Shown here one piece after another: positions 1 to 13,660 of a DNA stretch of 15,191 nt; the first letter of the stretch is position 1; the number at the start of each line of letters is the position of its first letter. The stretch is from the IMG/VR virus record IMGVR_UViG_2698536480_000008, one strand, 5' to 3'. The DNA is from a virus (lineage: Duplodnaviria; Heunggongvirae; Uroviricota; Caudoviricetes). The notes beneath the pieces are model-generated. The model was not told the DNA's origin. It worked only from the letters and a program-made list of their open reading frames with translations, and did not search any database. The position numbers were made by a program, and so were the translations under genes.

Positions 1-156
1 TTACTCCCCAAGTTCGTAAGCTGTGAAGACAGCGACCTCCGTCTGGTCGGTTCGGATTCGTACCTCGCAGAGGTCTTTCCTCGTTACCAGTACCGTCACT
101 ATAACGGTTAAACAGATGACGATCAGGGCGACTAACATCGCCTTTTGCTGCTTCAT
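1..156 (-). CDS. hok: Hok/Gef-family type I toxin, 51 aa (HokD/HokC-like); an in-frame upstream extension to 213 gives a 70-aa mok-like ORF
   Basis: Minus-strand ORF ending at the TAA at 3..1. Translation from the internal ATG (156..154) is MKQQKAMLVALIVICLTVIVTVLVTRKDLCEVRIRTDQTEVAVFTAYELGE: a single transmembrane helix plus the conserved RKDLCEV.R motif of Hok/Gef toxins, very close to HokD/RelF as I remember it. Paralogue assignment is uncertain. Confidence 0.75.
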   Translation of the reverse strand: MKQQKAMLVALIVICLTVIVTVLVTRKDLCEVRIRTDQTEVAVFTAYELGE

Positions 157-415
157 AGCCTGCTTCTCCTTGCCTTTCGGCACGTAAGAGGCTAACCTAC
201 ATGTGCAAAGCATGAAATTGGCCTCAGATTAATGTTAAGCGTCTTGCCGGATGCGTAATGTTAACTGGGGCTTTTCTCTATCTGCCTTTGATGTTCATGC
301 CCGAGGCAGATAGCCTCAAGTATCCGCAGCTATTTGTCTGCTGTTACCACCTACCTGCGCCAATCACTGACTCTACAAAGATCTATCCGCGATAACATTT
401 TGAGTTTAAGAACTT

Positions 416-4097: not shown

Positions 4098-4859
4098 TCA
4101 CTTTTCCGACACAATACGACTGGAGGAATCGACAATCTGACGGACAATATCCTGGTGCTTGTTCAACTCACGCAGCGCGGCGCAGACACGCTCCCACTTC
4201 TGGACATGATTTTTCGCCCGACGCAGTTCGCGGTTTGCCATATGCAGTGATGGTAAAACCAGGTCATCCGCTCGCGTTTCAGTAAACGATGGCAGCGACT
4301 GCACAATGTCCGCCACAGTTTCTGTTTTAATATCTTCCTGTGTTGCAGCCTCCTGTACTGGTAACGCAACACCTGCGGTCTGAGGAAAGGCCTTACCATC
4401 AGTTTCCGCTACCGATGCTGCTTTCGGCTCTGCTGGTAAATTATCGCCCGGTATGCAGTAACGAAATTTACCGCCCTGATTTACGCGAATCAGACGACCT
4501 TTGCTGATTGCCATTGCCAGCGTTGAAGCCACTTTGCGTGATGTGGTACCAAACAATGTAGCCAGCTCATCAGCCGTTTGTGGTCCTCGTTGTTCAATCG
4601 TCGCGGTTAAATCGCACTCTGAGATTTTCGCTACTGTTGCTGTGGTGATTTCTTCCGGCAGTTCTGCCTGCGCTGGCTGTTCCTGCTGAACATTGTTATC
4701 AGCCACACGCCAGGTGTACGCGCTTTTATCAACAAAACCAGCCTTTTTCAGTTCCCATAGTTCGTTCAGCACTTCTTCACGACTGATATCAAGTCGCGCA
4801 GCAAGTTCTATGGATGTGGCTTTTCCCATTGCTTTCAGTGCGTCAAAAACAGTCTCCAT
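4098..4859 (-). CDS. Hypothetical prophage protein, 254 aa; possibly a full-length counterpart of the YdaW-type protein that follows ydaV in Rac
   Basis: ATG at 4859..4857 with a GGGAG ribosome-binding site, 22 nt downstream of the ydaV stop. N-terminus [43 protein letters not shown] looks like a winged-helix domain. Family assignment from memory is uncertain. Confidence 0.55.
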
Positions 4860-4881: not shown

Positions 4882-5628
4882 TTACTTCGCAATTCCTGGC
4901 TGGACGACATTCGGACGCCAGCTCTCCCAGTTAAAATTCACCCATCGCCCGCCGTTCATGGTCATGCGATCCATAATCCGCTCGCCGAGCAATGTTTTCA
5001 TGGCCTCATAGTTCAGGTTTGTCAGCATCCCCACGCTGCGCATCGACGCTGTCCGGCGATCAACAATCTGGTACAGTACCACCTGCTCGTTTTTCGTCTC
5101 GCGCTGAATGCCAATTTCATCAAGAACCAGCAGATCCACTTCGCACAGTTCCCGCAAAAATTTTTCGCCTGACTGCCCATCGTCATAGCTGGCGTGCAGG
5201 GCACTCATAACATCAGCCACGGTAACCACAATCACTGTCTGACCGTCTTTCAGCAGGCGATTCCCGATAGCTGCCGCTAAGTGGTTCTTCCCGGTACCAG
5301 GTTTTCCGCTGAACGCAAAATTTGTACACCCGGTCATCAGTTCATCAGCGATGGATTTCGCCTGACTCAACGCGTATCGCTGCCCTTCGTTCTGCACCTG
5401 GTAATTCGAAAACGAGCATTTGCGGTGCAATGGCTGGATGCCAGAGCGATTCAGAATTTTTTCCACCCGCAACTGACGATTCTGACGGTTGATCTCCTCA
5501 CAACGTTTCTGGCCTTCGGAAAGTTGCCACTCGCGCCACTCCGCTACCGTCTTGAATGGCGCGGTTACATGTGACGGGGCCAGTCTGCGGATACGTTCAA
5601 GAACATCGCCTGTCGCAATATTTTTCAT
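4882..5628 (-). CDS. ydaV: DnaC/IstB-like AAA+ replication helicase-loader protein, 248 aa
   Basis: Walker A-like [15 protein letters not shown] and Walker B LLVLDEIG. Length and position after the 285-aa replication protein match Rac ydaV. Confidence 0.85.
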
Positions 5629-5634
5629 GGTCAG

Positions 5635-6492
5635 TTACCCCCTGAAGCCTGGCGGGATCGCACTATCCGGTAACGAGACGGTGTTAACCTGTCGGAGTAA
5701 CGTCTCAGGTCGAACACCTTTCGGCGCGAACAAGCCCTGGTATTCATTGGCGATGCTGTGTCGAATCACCTGCTCAGGTGAAAAACCCTGCTGGCGGAAT
5801 TTTTCCAGCTCCCGTATCGCCCCGTTAGCGCCCTGCTCCGTTCGAATCGGTTTTCGCAATGCCTGGCGAAATTCAACCCACTCACGCCAAAGCGAGACAG
5901 AAATCCAGTTCGGCAAAGTAATATCCAGAGGGTCAAACTTTTTGACACCTCGATTCCCCCGGGGGGGATTTAGGGGGGGATCTGTTTTTAGATCTTTATC
6001 TGTATCTTTATTAGTTGCCTTTGTGTTGACATCATGTTCAAACACCACTTCAACATCTGTTTGAACACCTGTTAAATTTCTCTCTTGTTTTGTTTGAACA
6101 TCTGCTTCCTTTCTGCTTCTTCTGGCCTGAACAGATGCTTTTCCTGCGGCTGATTTTTTGGTTAATTTTTCCCTGACTGATGCCAGATCTTCCTCAATCC
6201 GAAGATGCACCCATTCCTCGCCGTTATCGCAAAAAAACTCCTGCAAGGATGGTTCAACATCAGCCCATCGCTCGTTAGTCAGACGGGCAATTTTTGCCAG
6301 CCTGTTTTTAGGTATTGGCTTTCCTGTTTGCCAGTAATTGAACATCAGCAACAAATACGCACCATGCTCCTCTGCTGACAAATGCATGGTGTCAGCCAGG
6401 TAATCAGCTATGTACAGTTGCATGTATGGTAATGCGGCCATAATTGCCCCGTATGATGCTGCCCGGTGGCTTAGAATAAGCACAAACAGCAT
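5635..6492 (-). CDS. ydaU: Rac prophage replication-initiation-like protein (YdaU/DUF1376 type), 285 aa
   Basis: 285-codon ORF immediately upstream of ydaV on the same strand, with a 6-nt gap. Length and synteny match K-12 YdaU. The annotated start at 6492 has no obvious ribosome-binding site; an internal ATG at 6441 (MAALPYMQLY) is an alternative. Confidence 0.8.
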   Translation of the reverse strand: MLFVLILSHRAASYGAIMAALPYMQLYIADYLADTMHLSAEEHGAYLLLMFNYWQTGKPIPKNRLAKIARLTNERWADVEPSLQEFFCDNGEEWVHLRIEEDLASVREKLTKKSAAGKASVQARRSRKEADVQTKQERNLTGVQTDVEVVFEHDVNTKATNKDTDKDLKTDPPLNPPRGNRGVKKFDPLDITLPNWISVSLWREWVEFRQALRKPIRTEQGANGAIRELEKFRQQGFSPEQVIRHSIANEYQGLFAPKGVRPETLLRQVNTVSLPDSAIPPGFRG

Positions 6493-6504
6493 GGAAACTT
6501 TTGC

Positions 6505-6630
6505 TTAATGAACAATGACAGAATCGTCGGAAGAACCGCCGCCGCTGAAATGCGCTTTCCGGTAAACGGCTTGGACTGCATCATCATGCGCATCAATTGC
6601 CGTACTTAACGCTTCCTGCGCCGCCAGTAT
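6505..6630 (-). pseudogene. ydaT: 3' remnant of ydaT (last ~40 codons) without a start codon, left by a ydaS-ydaT deletion
   Basis: Minus-strand frame ending at the TAA at 6507..6505 translates to ...LAAQEALSTAIDAHDDAVQAVYRKAHFSGGGSSDDSVIVH*, matching the YdaT C-terminus as I remember it. Upstream of about 6630 the frame runs into the ydaS ORF in another frame. Confidence 0.45.
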
Positions 6631-6826
6631 CAGGACGAAGTTCTTCGCACAGAACCTCACCTCTTGTTGCACGTTCAATTGCTGGACATCTCTCGGCAGG
6701 CAATTGACGTACCCCTTTGATCCATTGATTTACGCTTGGAGGTGATACACCTAAAAGCCTAGCCATTGCTGATTGCCCACCGACAACAGCACAAGCTTGC
6801 TTGAATGAATAGTTCTCTTTTTTCAT
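6593..6826 (-). CDS. ydaS: Cro-like helix-turn-helix regulator, 77 aa, probably C-terminally altered by a deletion
   Basis: ATG at 6826..6824 with a GGAG ribosome-binding site. MKKENYSFKQACAVVGGQSAMARLLGVSPPSVNQWIKGVRQLPAERCPAIERATRG is a Cro/CI-type HTH, divergent from racR. K-12 YdaS is ~98 aa by memory; here it ends early in ...TGGAGSVKYGN. Confidence 0.7.
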   Translation of the reverse strand: MKKENYSFKQACAVVGGQSAMARLLGVSPPSVNQWIKGVRQLPAERCPAIERATRGEVLCEELRPDTGGAGSVKYGN

Positions 6827-6949
6827 CGAATGAACTCCAAAAACACACAGAAATATTAGGCGACGCCTAACGCAATTGTCAATAGGCTGTGCCTAATGCG
6901 GTAAGGGTAGGGATTGCCTAATGTAATGCGCATAGGAGAATATTAAGCA
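6827..6949. promoter_or_regulatory. Divergent ydaS/racR promoter-operator region with TTAGGC-type palindromes
   Basis: Perfect 15-bp palindrome TTAGGCGACGCCTAA (6855-6869), inverted repeat TAGGCTGTGCCTAA (6883-6896), a further GCCTAA half-site (6916-6921), and the 13-bp motif ATTGTCAATAGGC (6875-6887). Lies between the divergent start codons of a repressor/Cro pair. Confidence 0.55.
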
Positions 6950-7426
6950 ATGCTTAGTGGTAAAGACTTAGGCCGAGCGATAGAGCAGGCCATTAACAAA
7001 AAAATCGCATCGGGATCCGTCAAATCAAAGGCGGAGGTCGCACGCCACTTCAAAGTCCAACCACCATCAATTTATGACTGGATTAAGAAAGGCTCTATAA
7101 GTAAAGATAAACTTCCAGAATTATGGCGTTTCTTTTCTGATGTTGTTGGTCCAGAGCATTGGGGGCTTAACGAATACCCCATACCAACCCCCACCAATTC
7201 AGATACAAAAAGTGAACTTTTAGATATAAACAACCTTTATCAAGCAGCCTCTGATGAAATAAGAGCGATTGTAGCTTTCCTGTTATCTGGAAATGCTACA
7301 GAACCAGATTGGGTTGACCACGATGTTCGCGCCTACATAGCAGCGATGGAAATGAAAGTGGGTAAGTATCTGAAAGCTCTAGAATCTGAACGGAAAAGCC
7401 AGAACATCACAAAAACTGGAACTTAA
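6950..7426 (+). CDS. racR: Rac prophage repressor, 158 aa
   Basis: ATG at 6950 with an AGGAG ribosome-binding site (6934-6938); 158 aa with an N-terminal HTH (KAEVARHFKVQPPSIYDWIKKG). Divergent from the Cro-like gene; length matches RacR. Confidence 0.85.
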   Translation: MLSGKDLGRAIEQAINKKIASGSVKSKAEVARHFKVQPPSIYDWIKKGSISKDKLPELWRFFSDVVGPEHWGLNEYPIPTPTNSDTKSELLDINNLYQAASDEIRAIVAFLLSGNATEPDWVDHDVRAYIAAMEMKVGKYLKALESERKSQNITKTGT

Positions 7427-7499
7427 ACTTATATGGTCTGACGGAAAACTCCTGGATTCCGTTATTTAACCCCCCCATCACTTTCTGCTGTCGCCATCA

Positions 7500-7560
7500 C
7501 CTATTAGGTTACGCTCAAAACATTAGGCATAGCCTATTGACAATCAATTAGGCATTACCT
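7500..7560. promoter_or_regulatory. Second operator-like cluster downstream of racR and upstream of ydaG, sharing motifs with the ydaS/racR operators
   Basis: TTAGGCATAGCCTA inverted repeat (7523-7536), TTAGGC at 7549-7554, TTAGGT at 7505-7510, and GCCTATTGACAAT (7532-7544), which is the exact reverse complement of the 13-mer at 6875-6887. Confidence 0.35.
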
Positions 7561-7734
7561 ATAGTTCCAGCATACCACCCACCCCGCCCCACAGAACGCC
7601 GGGCAATACTTCGAGTTACCAGGCAGTGGTAAGGGGTTAAGTAGCCAGCCCGAGGCGTATGAACATGACGGCGGGATTCAAATTTTGCAGTGCAGCAGTT
7701 AGTTCCGCCACCCGGCGTTAAGGGGAGAGATAAG

Positions 7735-7869
7735 ATGGTGCATTACGAAGTAGTTCAGTATTTGATGGATTGTTGCGGTATCACTTACAACCAGGCTGTG
7801 CAGGCTTTACGCAGCAACGACTGGGATCTCTGGCAGGCAGAAGTCGCTATACGTAGCAACAAGATGTGA
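7735..7869 (+). CDS. ydaG: Small Rac prophage protein, 44 aa
   Basis: ATG at 7735 with a GGGGAGAG ribosome-binding site; MVHYEVVQYLMDCCGITYNQAVQALRSNDWDLWQAEVAIRSNKM. Below the ORF-track size cutoff; position (racR-proximal) and length fit ydaG. Confidence 0.6.
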   Translation: MVHYEVVQYLMDCCGITYNQAVQALRSNDWDLWQAEVAIRSNKM

Positions 7870-7879
7870 GATTCGCAAA

Positions 7880-8035
7880 ATGCAAAAAATCGACCTCGGC
7901 AACAACGAATCCCTGGTGTGCGGCGTGTTCCCCAACCAGGATGGAACGTTCACTGCCATGACGTATACCAAAAGCAAAACATTTAAAACCGAAACTGGTG
8001 CGCGCCGATGGTTGGAGAAGCACACAGTAAGCTAA
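7880..8035 (+). CDS. ydaF: Small Rac prophage protein, 51 aa
   Basis: ATG at 7880; MQKIDLGNNESLVCGVFPNQDGTFTAMTYTKSKTFKTETGARRWLEKHTVS. Its stop overlaps the convergent sieB stop. Position (sieB-proximal) and length fit ydaF. Confidence 0.6.
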   Translation: MQKIDLGNNESLVCGVFPNQDGTFTAMTYTKSKTFKTETGARRWLEKHTVS

Positions 8036-8520
8036 CGATTAAAACGTCTACTCCTGCTGTTCCAGAATAACTTCATAAAATGGGAGTATTTTTCGGTGAC
8101 GAGATAATAAGAACAGTTTGCGCTATCACTCTGATGTTGAATGATGCCCTTCCGTTCTAATTTTTTCATAACCGGGTTACGGCAAGGAGAAGTGATAATA
8201 AGATTTCCTGTTTTAAGGAAATCTTTAAATACAGCGATTTCTTTCTCAGATAAACGAAGCAATACTCGTTGCTCTGGTAGTAATGAATAATGCTTTTGAA
8301 TATGTGCTCGCAATCTTGAGAAGGAAATGGCGACCACGAAAGAAAAGGCAAAAACGATAATCTGAAAGAGCCAAGGTATTTCAGTATAAGCATTGAATGC
8401 GACAGTAAACTCTTTCGGTATCAGCCAGAGAGTGAGACCAAAAATGATAATCGTATACATAAGTCTTTCGAGTGGCTCGTTAGCAAAAAGTTTCAACAAT
8501 GGAGTAAATACATCCAACAT
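8032..8520 (-). CDS. sieB: Superinfection exclusion protein B, 162 aa, membrane protein
   Basis: Start at the internal ATG 8520..8518 (MLDVFTPLLKLFANEPLERLMYTIIIFGLTLWLIPKEF...), with hydrophobic helices. Length and sequence match Rac SieB as remembered. The 203-aa track ORF is an unsupported upstream extension. Confidence 0.85.
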   Translation of the reverse strand: MLDVFTPLLKLFANEPLERLMYTIIIFGLTLWLIPKEFTVAFNAYTEIPWLFQIIVFAFSFVVAISFSRLRAHIQKHYSLLPEQRVLLRLSEKEIAVFKDFLKTGNLIITSPCRNPVMKKLERKGIIQHQSDSANCSYYLVTEKYSHFMKLFWNSRSRRFNR

Positions 8521-8961
8521 ATCAATAACTCTCAACTGTAAGGGTATTGAAATGTTAACACAAGCTCTCGCTGTAGGGGTATAGCCGAGACCACCGAAGC
8601 CCGGAGGTGGTGAAATAAAACCGGGCACAACACGAAGGCGCATTTCCGATATCCATAAAGAGTCGGTCTTGTCTGTTAAATTTAAATGGTGGGAGTGCGC
8701 CTCCGGTTGTAAATAACGACATTGCTGTGTGTAGTCCTGGCGGCATCAGTTTTTTTCTTGAAGTTCGGCTGATGTCCGCCCTTTTTAAAGTGAATTTTGT
8801 GATGCGGTGAATGCGGCTAAGCGCACGTGGCACAGTTAAAAGTCATGTTAGTCCTTATTGGTTTGGGTGGGAAAGCCGACTGTAATTGTTAACTGGTTGC
8901 AGTCACCTGGAGGCACCAGACACCGCATCAACAAAGTTCATTTGTAAAAATGGAGATAATT

Positions 8962-9183
8962 ATGATTGCACATCACTTCGGAACTGATGAAATACCACGT
9001 CAGTGTGTGACTCCTGGCGATTATGTTCTTCATGAAGGCCGGACATATATTGCCTCGGCAAACAATATTAAAAAGCGAAAACTATATATTCGTAACCTGA
9101 CCACAAAAACATGCATTACTGACCGCATGATTAAAGTCTTCCTCGGTCGTGATGGTTTACCTGTAAAGGCGGAGTCATGGTGA
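8962..9183 (+). CDS. kilR: Rac prophage killing protein KilR (FtsZ inhibitor), 73 aa
   Basis: ATG at 8962 with GGAG 6 nt upstream; [73 protein letters not shown]. Divergent from sieB, as in Rac. Confidence 0.8.
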
Positions 9184-13263: not shown

Positions 13264-13458
13264 ATGAGATATGACAATGTTAAACCATGTCCATTTTGTG
13301 GTTGTCCATCAGTAACGGTGAAAGCCATTTCAGGATATTACCGAGCGAAGTGTAACGGATGCGAATCCCGAACCGGTTATGGTGGAAGTGAAAAAGAAGC
13401 ACTCGAAAGATGGAATAAACGAACCACTGGAAATAATAATGGAGGTGTTCATGTATAA
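13264..13458 (+). CDS. ralR: RalR (Lar) restriction-alleviation protein / type I toxin DNase, 64 aa
   Basis: MRYDNVKPCPFCGCPSVTVKAISGYYRAKCNGCESRTGYGGSEKEALERWNKRTTGNNNGGVHV from the ATG at 13264; Cys4 zinc-ribbon pattern; located between recT and ydaC. Confidence 0.8.
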   Translation: MRYDNVKPCPFCGCPSVTVKAISGYYRAKCNGCESRTGYGGSEKEALERWNKRTTGNNNGGVHV

Positions 13459-13660
13459 AATTACCGCCACTATTGAAAAGGAAGGTGGCACTCCTACTAA
13501 CTGGACAAGATATTCAAAATCTAAACTAACGAAATCAGAATGCGAAAAAATGCTCTCAGGTAAAAAAGAAGCAGGCGTTTCCAGAGAGCAGAAAGTAAAA
13601 CTGATAAATTTTAATTGCGCGAAACTTCAGTCCTCGAGAATTGCATTGTATTCAAATTAA
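13451..13660 (+). CDS. ydaC: Rac prophage protein YdaC, 69 aa
   Basis: ATG at 13451 with a GGAGGT ribosome-binding site (13441-13446), overlapping the ralR 3' end by 8 nt; MYKITATIEKEGGTPTNWTRYSKSKLTKSECEKMLSGKKEAGVSREQKVKLINFNCAKLQSSRIALYSN. Confidence 0.75.
   Translation: MYKITATIEKEGGTPTNWTRYSKSKLTKSECEKMLSGKKEAGVSREQKVKLINFNCAKLQSSRIALYSN

Follow-up and report, generated by a model that had tools for sequence, protein, structure and literature searches.

We propose that the two clusters of TTAGGC-type palindromes lying on either side of racR represent the right and left operators of the Rac prophage immunity region, in a lambda-type layout in which one promoter (PR) is directed toward ydaS and a second (PL) toward ydaG-ydaF; we assign this reading a probability of about 85%. 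The window, by which we mean the whole 15,191-nt stretch of DNA that was analysed, covers the Rac prophage immunity region of E. coli, running in the opposite direction to the K-12 map. The upstream (right) half of the arrangement is already published, the racR-ydaS operators reported previously agreeing in both motif and coordinates with the sites described here upstream of racR (PMC5700373, PMC9638921), whereas the downstream half appears to be unreported for Rac, yet is fully expected. The RacR papers PMC5700373 and PMC9638921 make no mention of sites downstream of racR, and in the literature searched, with its partial coverage of the older work on racR and kil, we found no explicit earlier description of Rac left operators.

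Gene layout and operator-like sites

Genes were assigned using the list of open reading frames, the RefSeq annotation of matching genomes and Pfam:

4882-5628, minus strand: ydaV
5635-6492, minus strand: ydaU
6593-6826, minus strand: ydaS, Cro-like, with an altered 3' end (Pfam YdaS_toxin, E=1.6e-28; P22_Cro, E=1.7e-9)
6950-7426, plus strand: racR, the prophage repressor, 158 aa (from the list of open reading frames; racR in RefSeq genomes)
7735-7869, plus strand: ydaG, 44 aa, the first gene after PL (open reading frame and translation)
7880-8035, plus strand: ydaF, the second gene after PL (Pfam DUF1391, E=1.9e-28)
8032-8643, minus strand: sieB

The sole gene between the left and right operator clusters is racR, whose product here is 100% identical to the E. 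coli K-12-type RacR; a comparison of this protein with PDB chains gave no match at E up to 1. Mapping against a K-12-like Rac identified a 420-bp deletion in this copy of the prophage, which takes out most of ydaT, so that what is left of ydaT, its 3' end, now follows directly on the 5' part of ydaS. The undeleted ydaS-ydaT form is found in all top-ranked complete E. coli genomes among the matches listed.

A preliminary description of this DNA had drawn attention to operator-like palindromes flanking racR on both sides. These conform to a 15-bp pattern, TTAGGC-N3-GCCTAA, and are gathered in two clusters, one at 6856-6921 upstream of racR and the other at 7523-7562 downstream of it. Together with two weaker elements, one over the racR start codon and one just ahead of the downstream cluster, the sites are (palindromic, without strand):

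6856-6870: right operator nearest ydaS, TTAGGCGACGCCTAA, a perfect palindrome with 0 mismatches, overlapping the PR -10 box and spacer
6882-6896: second right operator, ATAGGCTGTGCCTAA, 1 mismatch, its end base being the first base of the PR -35 hexamer
6907-6921: third right operator, GTAGGGATTGCCTAA, 2 mismatches, in the racR promoter region and inside the published RacR-protected region
6943-6957: weak operator over the racR start codon, TTAAGCAATGCTTAG, 3 mismatches, published in PMC9638921
7498-7518: candidate weak third left operator, with CACCTA/TTAGGT half-sites and then a poor right half, 3 mismatches
7523-7537: left operator on the -35 side, TTAGGCATAGCCTAT, 1 mismatch, its last T being the first base of the PL -35 hexamer
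7548-7562: left operator on the -10 side, TTAGGCATTACCTAT, 2 mismatches, overlapping the PL -10 box

The second right operator lies 26 bp from the one nearest ydaS, an architecture that is kept in all homologues examined, and the two left operators are 25 bp apart. The weak operator at the racR start codon is followed by a lone TTAGGC half-site at 6968-6973, and relatives possess a better-matching operator at the start codon, TTAGGCAATGCTTAG. Measured between the -35-side operators the two clusters are separated by 641 bp, and between the -10-side operators by 692 bp, which agrees with the figure of about 650 bp in the preliminary description. The individual elements listed in that description are likewise exactly placed (TAGGCTGTGCCTAA at 6883-6896, GCCTAA at 6916-6921, ATTGTCAATAGGC at 6875-6887, TTAGGCATAGCCTA at 7523-7536 and GCCTATTGACAAT at 7532-7544), except that TTAGGCGACGCCTAA had been put at 6855-6869, off by one from its actual position of 6856-6870; the downstream operator at 7548-7562 had been overlooked. 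The standing of the element at 7498-7518 as a third left operator is uncertain from its sequence: the O157 variant, 87% identical, retains its block CCATCACCTATTAGGT although the preceding 30 nt diverge, but the element is kept only among close E. coli variants and is not found in distant genera.

A chance origin of the palindromes was ruled out by comparison with 1000 dinucleotide-preserving shuffles of the window. Allowing up to two mismatches, five sites are present (starting at 6856, 6882, 6907, 7523 and 7548), against a shuffle mean of 0.50 and a maximum of 3, with none of the 1000 shuffles reaching five; at up to one mismatch the count is three against 0.02 expected, and three pairs of neighbouring sites fall within 24-27 bp of each other (the actual spacing being 25-26 bp) against 0.001 expected. 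A motif scan of the kind proposed at the outset recovered no further operator site with up to two mismatches elsewhere in the 15,191 bases, and the pattern is thus clean for this part of Rac. When the 15-mer TTAGGCNNNGCCTAA is used as the query at up to three mismatches, 10 matches are obtained against 5.6 expected, a number reached by 18 of 200 shuffles and not significant alone; the same applies to the number of 13-mer matches at up to two mismatches.

Outward promoters and their distribution among relatives

The 13-bp motif shared by the two clusters, GCCTATTGACAAT, occurs exactly twice in the window (minus strand, 6875-6887; plus strand, 7532-7544); that its two copies are in opposite orientation had been noticed in the preliminary description. 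It is composed of the right half of an operator (GCCTA) joined to a perfect -35 hexamer (TTGACA), and it is inverted between the two sides because PR and PL fire outward from racR. A promoter scan of positions 6400-8200 returned exactly two promoters, one per cluster, both of which use the TTGACA of the 13-mer. These promoters, and the untranslated block that follows PL, are:

6853-6882, minus strand: PR (PydaS) promoter, -35 TTGACA at 6882..6877, 18-nt spacer, -10 TAATAT at 6858..6853, directed toward ydaS
7537-7565, plus strand: PL promoter, -35 TTGACA at 7537-7542, 17-nt spacer, -10 TATAGT at 7560-7565, directed toward ydaG
7568-7726, plus strand: conserved untranslated leader of the early-left transcript, about 155 nt, belonging to the flanking module and not to the immunity module

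The boxes of PydaS had already been mapped by primer extension and by mutagenesis of the -10 element (PMC9638921); those of PL are predicted from their match to 11 of the 12 sigma-70 consensus positions. Read with transcription, the PR unit (TTAGGCACAGCCTATTGACAATTGCGTTAGGCGTCGCCTAATAT) and the PL unit (TTAGGCATAGCCTATTGACAATCAATTAGGCATTACCTATAGT) can be aligned over about 47 nt, with 21 of the first 22 nt identical and the PR spacer longer by one base. Both units have the same internal organization, with one operator ending on the first base of the -35 hexamer and the other covering the -10 box. The inverted repeats downstream of racR are accordingly of the same type as the right operator, are situated beyond the repressor gene and overlap a predicted sigma-70 promoter aimed away from racR into the early-left genes.

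The E. coli O157:H7 lineage, E. ruysiae, Mixta, Morganella, Proteus and Achromobacter all have repressors whose N-terminal domain is of the RacR type. The O157:H7 version constitutes a second E. coli lineage with 87% DNA identity; the repressors of Mixta, Morganella and Proteus share 57-62% protein identity with RacR and that of Achromobacter 75% over the first 77 residues, giving a range of 57-75% for the repressors of the aligned loci overall. In each of these a left unit is present shortly past the stop codon of the repressor, comprising a 15-bp site, TTGAC(A/T), about 5 nt and a second 15-bp site that overlaps a -10 box of the form TAATAT, TATAGT or TACTAT. We aligned seven loci (E. coli, E. 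coli O157, E. ruysiae, Mixta, Morganella, Proteus and Achromobacter) and observed that, past a conserved stretch at the racR stop codon, nearly all the invariant columns fall within 7524-7565 (TAGGC, GCCTATTGAC, TAGG and CCTA), the remaining intergenic DNA between racR and the ydaG side being unalignable between genera. The half-site columns of 7523-7537 are invariant in the seven aligned loci (six genera), with the same sites in phage KpF5, and the position and spacing of 7548-7562 are the same in every homologue having the left operator pair. The expectation that the downstream motifs would be conserved in related prophages is therefore borne out, in that they are kept beside RacR-type repressors across genera while the flanks differ, the left unit persisting beyond the similarity of its flanking DNA. 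As a separate observation, the roughly 20 nt directly after the racR stop codon are also kept across genera.

Two of these relatives depart from the Rac layout around an otherwise similar left unit. In the Klebsiella phage KpF5 a cargo gene and an intrinsic terminator intervene, which places the left pair 1.4 kb past the repressor gene and 1.9 kb from the right cluster, the unit being otherwise the same. The Achromobacter repressor joins a DNA-binding domain of the RacR type to a Peptidase_S24 domain (E=1.2e-13), and the TTAGGC motif is nevertheless present at both clusters; this fusion to a self-cleavage domain marks it as a classical SOS-type repressor. Counting against the proposed reading, the left pair was not seen within the flank examined in Klebsiella sp. 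R390 and Pigmentiphaga, and the sites are only degenerate in two Pseudomonas phages whose DNA-binding domain is 52% identical. The distance between the clusters in different relatives is 641, 639, 614, 591, 629, 1211 or 1914 bp, and these values were not informative about helical phasing.

We then examined a set of 121 prophage loci that share the block 7568-7726 and have at least 1.4 kb of upstream sequence. A homologue of RacR is encoded in 23 of the 121, and in all 23 TTAGGC-type sites are present at both the left and the right positions, with the proximal site of one locus having 3 mismatches. Among the 98 loci without a RacR homologue none has TTAGGC-type sites at either position; instead, promoters and operators of about 15 other types are found in them, and in every type distinct palindromes surround a -35-like hexamer at the same position. 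This is illustrated by one locus (L003) in which the ydaT side and the ydaG-ydaF-sieB-kilR flank are as in Rac, whereas the repressor and Cro are different, and an AGTACAT-type repeat is found both between the repressor and Cro and just before the leader. The operator sequence thus changes with the repressor type, and such operator swaps are the behaviour that would be expected, judging from these sequences, of an immunity module bounded by both operator sets.

Proposed repressor control of the early-left genes

Previous studies have established much of the behaviour of the right cluster, in which three GCCTAA/TTAGGC repeats were noted and binding of RacR was demonstrated by EMSA and ChIP-qPCR (PMC5700373). 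DNase I footprinting with RacR yielded the consensus T/ATAGGC-n3-GCCTAT/A, the ydaST promoter region being protected first (PMC9638921); later papers count four inverted repeats (PMC11014345, PMC11879457). RacR is supported as an octamer by size exclusion, and its regulon, ydaFG included, is stated not to have been characterised in detail (PMC11014345). When RacR falls, ydaG, ydaF, kilR, ydaE, racC and recE go up 40-70-fold or more (PMC6765115, PMC11014345, bioRxiv 10.64898/2026.09.06.749655), with ydaF being derepressed about 40-fold when racR expression falls (PMC6765115). The excision genes also rise strongly at low RacR in three transcriptome data sets. Repression of kil by racR is said to have been described by Conter et al. 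in 1996. That the rac recombination genes undergo zygotic induction was already known in 1973 (cited in PMC5917428).

The proposal in the preliminary description that a single repressor controls both the ydaS promoter and a second promoter toward ydaG-ydaF finds support from several directions. The predicted sites bracket PL; the PL unit is a near copy of the published ydaS unit; it is kept beside RacR-type repressors and gives way to other palindromes where the repressor is of another type; and ydaG, ydaF, kilR, ydaE, racC and recE rise on loss of RacR in the published transcriptomes. Part of this derepression of the left genes could be indirect, via YdaS/YdaT or through excision of the prophage.

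We envisage that PL would drive ydaG-ydaF and then kilR-ydaE-racC-recE-recT on the plus strand. PL would be occluded by RacR dimers occupying both left sites in a cooperative manner, as they would at the right cluster. Each promoter lies between two 15-bp sites of the RacR type with centres 25-26 bp apart. The sites abut the -35 hexamer and cover the -10 box, and therefore a bound pair of RacR dimers would exclude RNA polymerase; occlusion of PL is in turn predicted to keep the ydaG-ydaF-kilR-racC-recE-recT side silent. YdaS may use the left sites too. We infer direct binding of RacR at 7523-7562, cooperative pairwise binding and a possible bridging of the two clusters by a RacR oligomer. Left operators on a near-consensus PL would directly explain the 40-70-fold derepression of ydaG, ydaF, kilR, racC and recE, and would probably explain that of the excision genes too. 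In recent studies of RacR the racR-ydaS intergenic region has been taken to be the entire switch, and we predict that with reporter or in vitro constructs from which the left cluster is absent half of the system goes unseen. Set against this reading, cells without ydaS-ydaT survive deletion of racR even with kilR still present (PMC5700373), and therefore full derepression of PL is not lethal by itself. Rho-dependent termination is reported in this region (PMC4150792); it may limit the expression of kilR and may explain why derepression of PL is tolerated. It could also be that the output of PL is modest.

The sites downstream of racR might be mainly targets of the Cro-like YdaS, which would turn PL down after induction. 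The helix-turn-helix regions of RacR and YdaS are alike, including the recognition helix PPS(I/V)xxWIK (41% identity over 29 aa, E=8e-6). Repression by YdaS has been reported for its own promoter, not for racR (PMC9638921), and the left promoter of CP-933P responds to PaaR2 as well as to YdaS, the YdaS of that prophage acting on both promoters (PMC8630535). Pointing the other way, the motif tracks the RacR-type DNA-binding domain perfectly and fits the footprinted RacR consensus; as ydaS-type genes accompany most RacR-type repressors, the motif association cannot separate RacR from YdaS. We regard a predominant role for YdaS as a credible if doubtful option, and on our analysis the RacR and YdaS readings of the left sites are not mutually exclusive: in lambda, CI and Cro share operators.

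A different emphasis would make the downstream cluster mainly a loop anchor for a RacR oligomer, allowing tighter repression of ydaS and tuning of racR, with local repression of PL being secondary. RacR is reported to be octameric (PMC11014345), like lambda CI and PaaR2, and the clusters are 641-692 bp apart with racR alone between them. However, in every relative examined a near-consensus promoter has its -35 and -10 boxes overlapped by the two downstream sites, as direct occlusion needs, and the distance between the clusters is not conserved (591 to 1914 bp). Furthermore, the published racR-ydaS constructs, used for reporter and in vitro work, apparently do not contain the left cluster (the published EMSA substrate covered -186 to +85 only) and ydaS was still efficiently repressed. 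We accordingly consider it unlikely that anchoring a loop is the main function of the downstream cluster.

Returning to the lambda-type reading, looping between OL and OR in Rac, raised as a possibility in the preliminary description, is plausible in itself, its support being the reported RacR octamer; the variable distance between the clusters speaks neither for nor against a loop. In the bridged state a single nucleoprotein complex would set the expression from PR, PL and racR. We put forward only tentatively the joint proposal that a RacR octamer bridges the two clusters about 0.65 kb apart, with racR inside the loop, and that the leader represents an undescribed cis-acting RNA module of the early-left transcript. 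With both clusters delineated, octamer looping becomes testable with simple constructs.

Two further explanations seem to us highly improbable. One is that the palindromes act in RNA, as hairpins or as terminators of, for instance, racR or antisense transcripts, and not as protein sites. It draws on two weak hairpin and T-run candidates in a terminator scan (6871..6855 and 7536..7524, minus strand) and on the lack of an evident strong intrinsic terminator between racR and PL; we rejected it, since such candidates are no commoner than in shuffles (2 against 2.5 expected), each stem is short at 5-7 pairs, the letters of the half-sites do not vary across genera while the 3-nt spacer varies freely, a pattern of protein recognition and not of compensatory pairing, and RacR footprints on this motif upstream of racR. 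The other is that Rac, as a defective prophage, retains downstream of racR a duplicate of the right operator-promoter that has lost its function and is decaying. This would suit the cryptic state of Rac and the ydaS-ydaT deletion in this copy, but the unit is intact in the functional or induced phages KpF5 and vB_EcoS-683R6 and across six genera, the left-operon genes respond to RacR depletion in K-12, and the zygotic induction mentioned above points the same way.

Comparable switches and the early-left leader

The closest general parallel is lambda, where, as in Rac, the repressor gene lies between two operator clusters (OL/PL and OR/PR), each overlapping an outward early promoter, with a Cro-like gene on the PR side and genes for recombination, kil and excision on the PL side. 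In both, several similar inverted repeats are set about 2.4 helical turns apart, the spacing being 25-26 bp in Rac and 23-24 bp in lambda. The operators of Rac are 15 bp long (TTAGGC-N3-GCCTAA) as against 17 bp in lambda, the clear left sites number two in Rac and three in lambda, and the clusters of Rac are about 0.65 kb apart, unlike those of lambda, which are separated by about 2.3 kb. Unlike lambda, Rac has neither rex genes nor an N gene, and RacR, in contrast to lambda CI, is without an S24 self-cleavage domain and is not SOS-cleavable. YdaS is moreover reported not to repress racR (PMC9638921), a further difference from lambda.

Two prophages of E. coli provide nearer comparisons. The dicA-dicC switch of Qin is like that of Rac in having a short non-cleavable repressor in a cryptic prophage of E. 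coli K-12, and its operators are found between dicA and dicC and also between dicA and the left promoter dicBp (PMC10448788). The conserved leader found after PL in Rac also follows the left promoter of Qin-type phages, whereas the repressor family and the operator sequence are different and the downstream genes are ydfABC-dicF-dicB in place of ydaG-ydaF-kilR. The PaaR2/YdaS switch of CP-933P shares with Rac a divergent ydaS-ydaT pair; the -35 and -10 boxes of its left promoter, PL933P, are identical to those of its PR, the operators OL1-3 are like those at PR, the repressor is octameric with looping proposed, and PL933P is regulated by both PaaR2 and YdaS (PMC8630535). CP-933P differs from Rac in its operator motif, which consists of GTTTAGTAA-type repeats, in possessing a toxin-antitoxin pair between the repressor and the left promoter, where Rac has none, and in that its left promoter has been tested with reporters (PMC8630535), while PL of Rac is predicted from the sequence. 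The general understanding of lambdoid switches is unchanged by the arrangement proposed here.

The leader after PL is highly conserved. Megablast matches start abruptly at 7571-7575, just past the PL -10 box (in matches H13 and H14), which marks a mosaic junction, and the block 7568-7726 is common to thousands of E. coli prophages. It follows the approximately 15 other promoter/operator types described above, with 76-99% identity among those prophages. A search of Rfam with the leader returned no family at E up to 1, and comparison by blastn-short with the put regions of HK022 (immunity region) gave only short matches at chance level (best E=0.08); on sequence similarity we rejected the leader as an antiterminator RNA of the HK022 put type. 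Its minimum-energy fold is only modestly better than those of shuffles (z = -2.06), and its long-range helix between ACGCCGGG and CCCGGCGU is interrupted by an A-G mismatch when the majority sequence is taken over 91 variants; we therefore claim no structure for it. The leader might control the early-left operon by acting, for example, as a loading site for Rho, or by covering the ribosome-binding site with its C-rich 5' end.

A conserved leader downstream of PL

The interval between PL, the left promoter directed towards ydaG, and the first gene that follows it is occupied by a non-coding element:

Window 7568-7726: leader, about 155 nt long, that separates the -10 box of PL from the ribosome-binding site of ydaG

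This leader is retained with 76-99% identity across thousands of E. coli prophages and in several phages, including Evi, Tritos and the vB_EcoS series. It is preceded by about 15 unrelated promoter/operator types, and the first genes after it likewise differ. Its 5' end is rich in C and poor in G (GC skew of -0.55), its 3' end carries a conserved AAGGGGA ribosome-binding site, and structure prediction yields weak folds only. A search of the leader against Rfam returned no match, and its comparison with the put element of HK022 revealed no similarity. As candidate roles we consider that the leader might load Rho, act in antitermination, or use its C-rich tract to mask the ribosome-binding site.

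Elsewhere in the window, Rfam models matched four regions:

8726-8781 (+): DicF-like sequence ahead of kilR, whose 39 bits fall short of the 48-bit gathering score (E=1.3e-5)
8783-8969 (+): weak STnc100 match following the DicF-like sequence (28 against 47 bits)
13457-13635 (-): RalA antitoxin RNA (223 bits)
151-325 (-): sok-type antitoxin RNA (99 bits)

Deletions and point differences around ydaS, ydaT and racR

Relative to K-12-type Rac, the window has undergone a 420-bp deletion (junction at 6625-6629), which removes approximately the last 31 codons of ydaS and the first 99 codons of ydaT, and leaves the ydaS reading frame with a new end of 11 unrelated residues. The deletion is flanked by the short imperfect repeats CCAGTAAT and CCAGTCAATAT, and the top-ranked complete E. 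coli genomes (the 12 best listed) all cover its junction with two separate matches. As ydaS and ydaT, the genes lost in this deletion, are reported to be toxic, their loss would render racR dispensable. A further Rac variant (L022; IMGVR_UViG_2617270941_000003, around 4504-4652) bears its own deletion, in which the 3' end of ydaT (window ~6563) has come to adjoin the PL leader midway along its length (window ~7631). The junction shows a GGTAA microhomology, and ydaT, ydaS, racR, PL and the operator sets on both sides of racR are deleted. In L051, another of the comparison loci, the interval from ydaT to the PL leader has yet another length.

Point differences from K-12-type Rac are few in window 6625-8700. 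A G in place of A at 6900 turns AGTAAG, the published -10 box of the PracR2 promoter, into GGTAAG; the remaining differences lie at 6627, on the deletion junction itself, and at 7051 and 7381, both of which are silent changes in racR.

DNA-binding domains, fusions and neighbors of RacR-type repressors

RacR (6950-7426) and YdaS (6593-6826) contain similar helix-turn-helix segments (41% identity over 29 amino acids, E=8e-6) with PPS(I/V)xxWIK in common, a similarity that fits with related half-sites being read by both proteins. Two RacR-type repressor genes code for a long C-terminal part:

Achromobacter locus (L012), 1501-2598
Pigmentiphaga locus (L013), 1501-2406

Their DNA-binding domains are 74-75% identical to RacR over 77 amino acids, and the Achromobacter protein also gives a weak match to the Pfam YdaS_toxin family. 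The C-terminal part of the Achromobacter protein is a Peptidase_S24 self-cleavage domain; the combination of RacR-type DNA-binding domain, operators and YdaS-type Cro is thus found with a LexA-like sensor domain as well as with a non-cleavable one. In Klebsiella phage KpF5 (L143, 2149-3412), two features intervene between the RacR-type repressor gene and its left operator-promoter: a DUF450 gene, and a clear intrinsic terminator made up of CCCGC-TTAT-GCGGG with a T-run after it. They hold the position of rexAB in lambda.

The end of racR itself harbors a stretch of about 20 nt, TAAACTTATATGGTCTGACGG, running from the stop codon onward (within window 7424-7462), which is kept in Mixta, Morganella, Proteus and Klebsiella despite a mere 57-62% identity of the repressor proteins. 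It is followed by a second feature:

Window 7441-7462: small hairpin, ACGGAA...TTCCGT

The O157 variant has this hairpin altered on both arms (ACGGGAA...TTCCCGT). The element as a whole (7424-7462) could be linked to the terminator that PMC4150792 names timm or trac.
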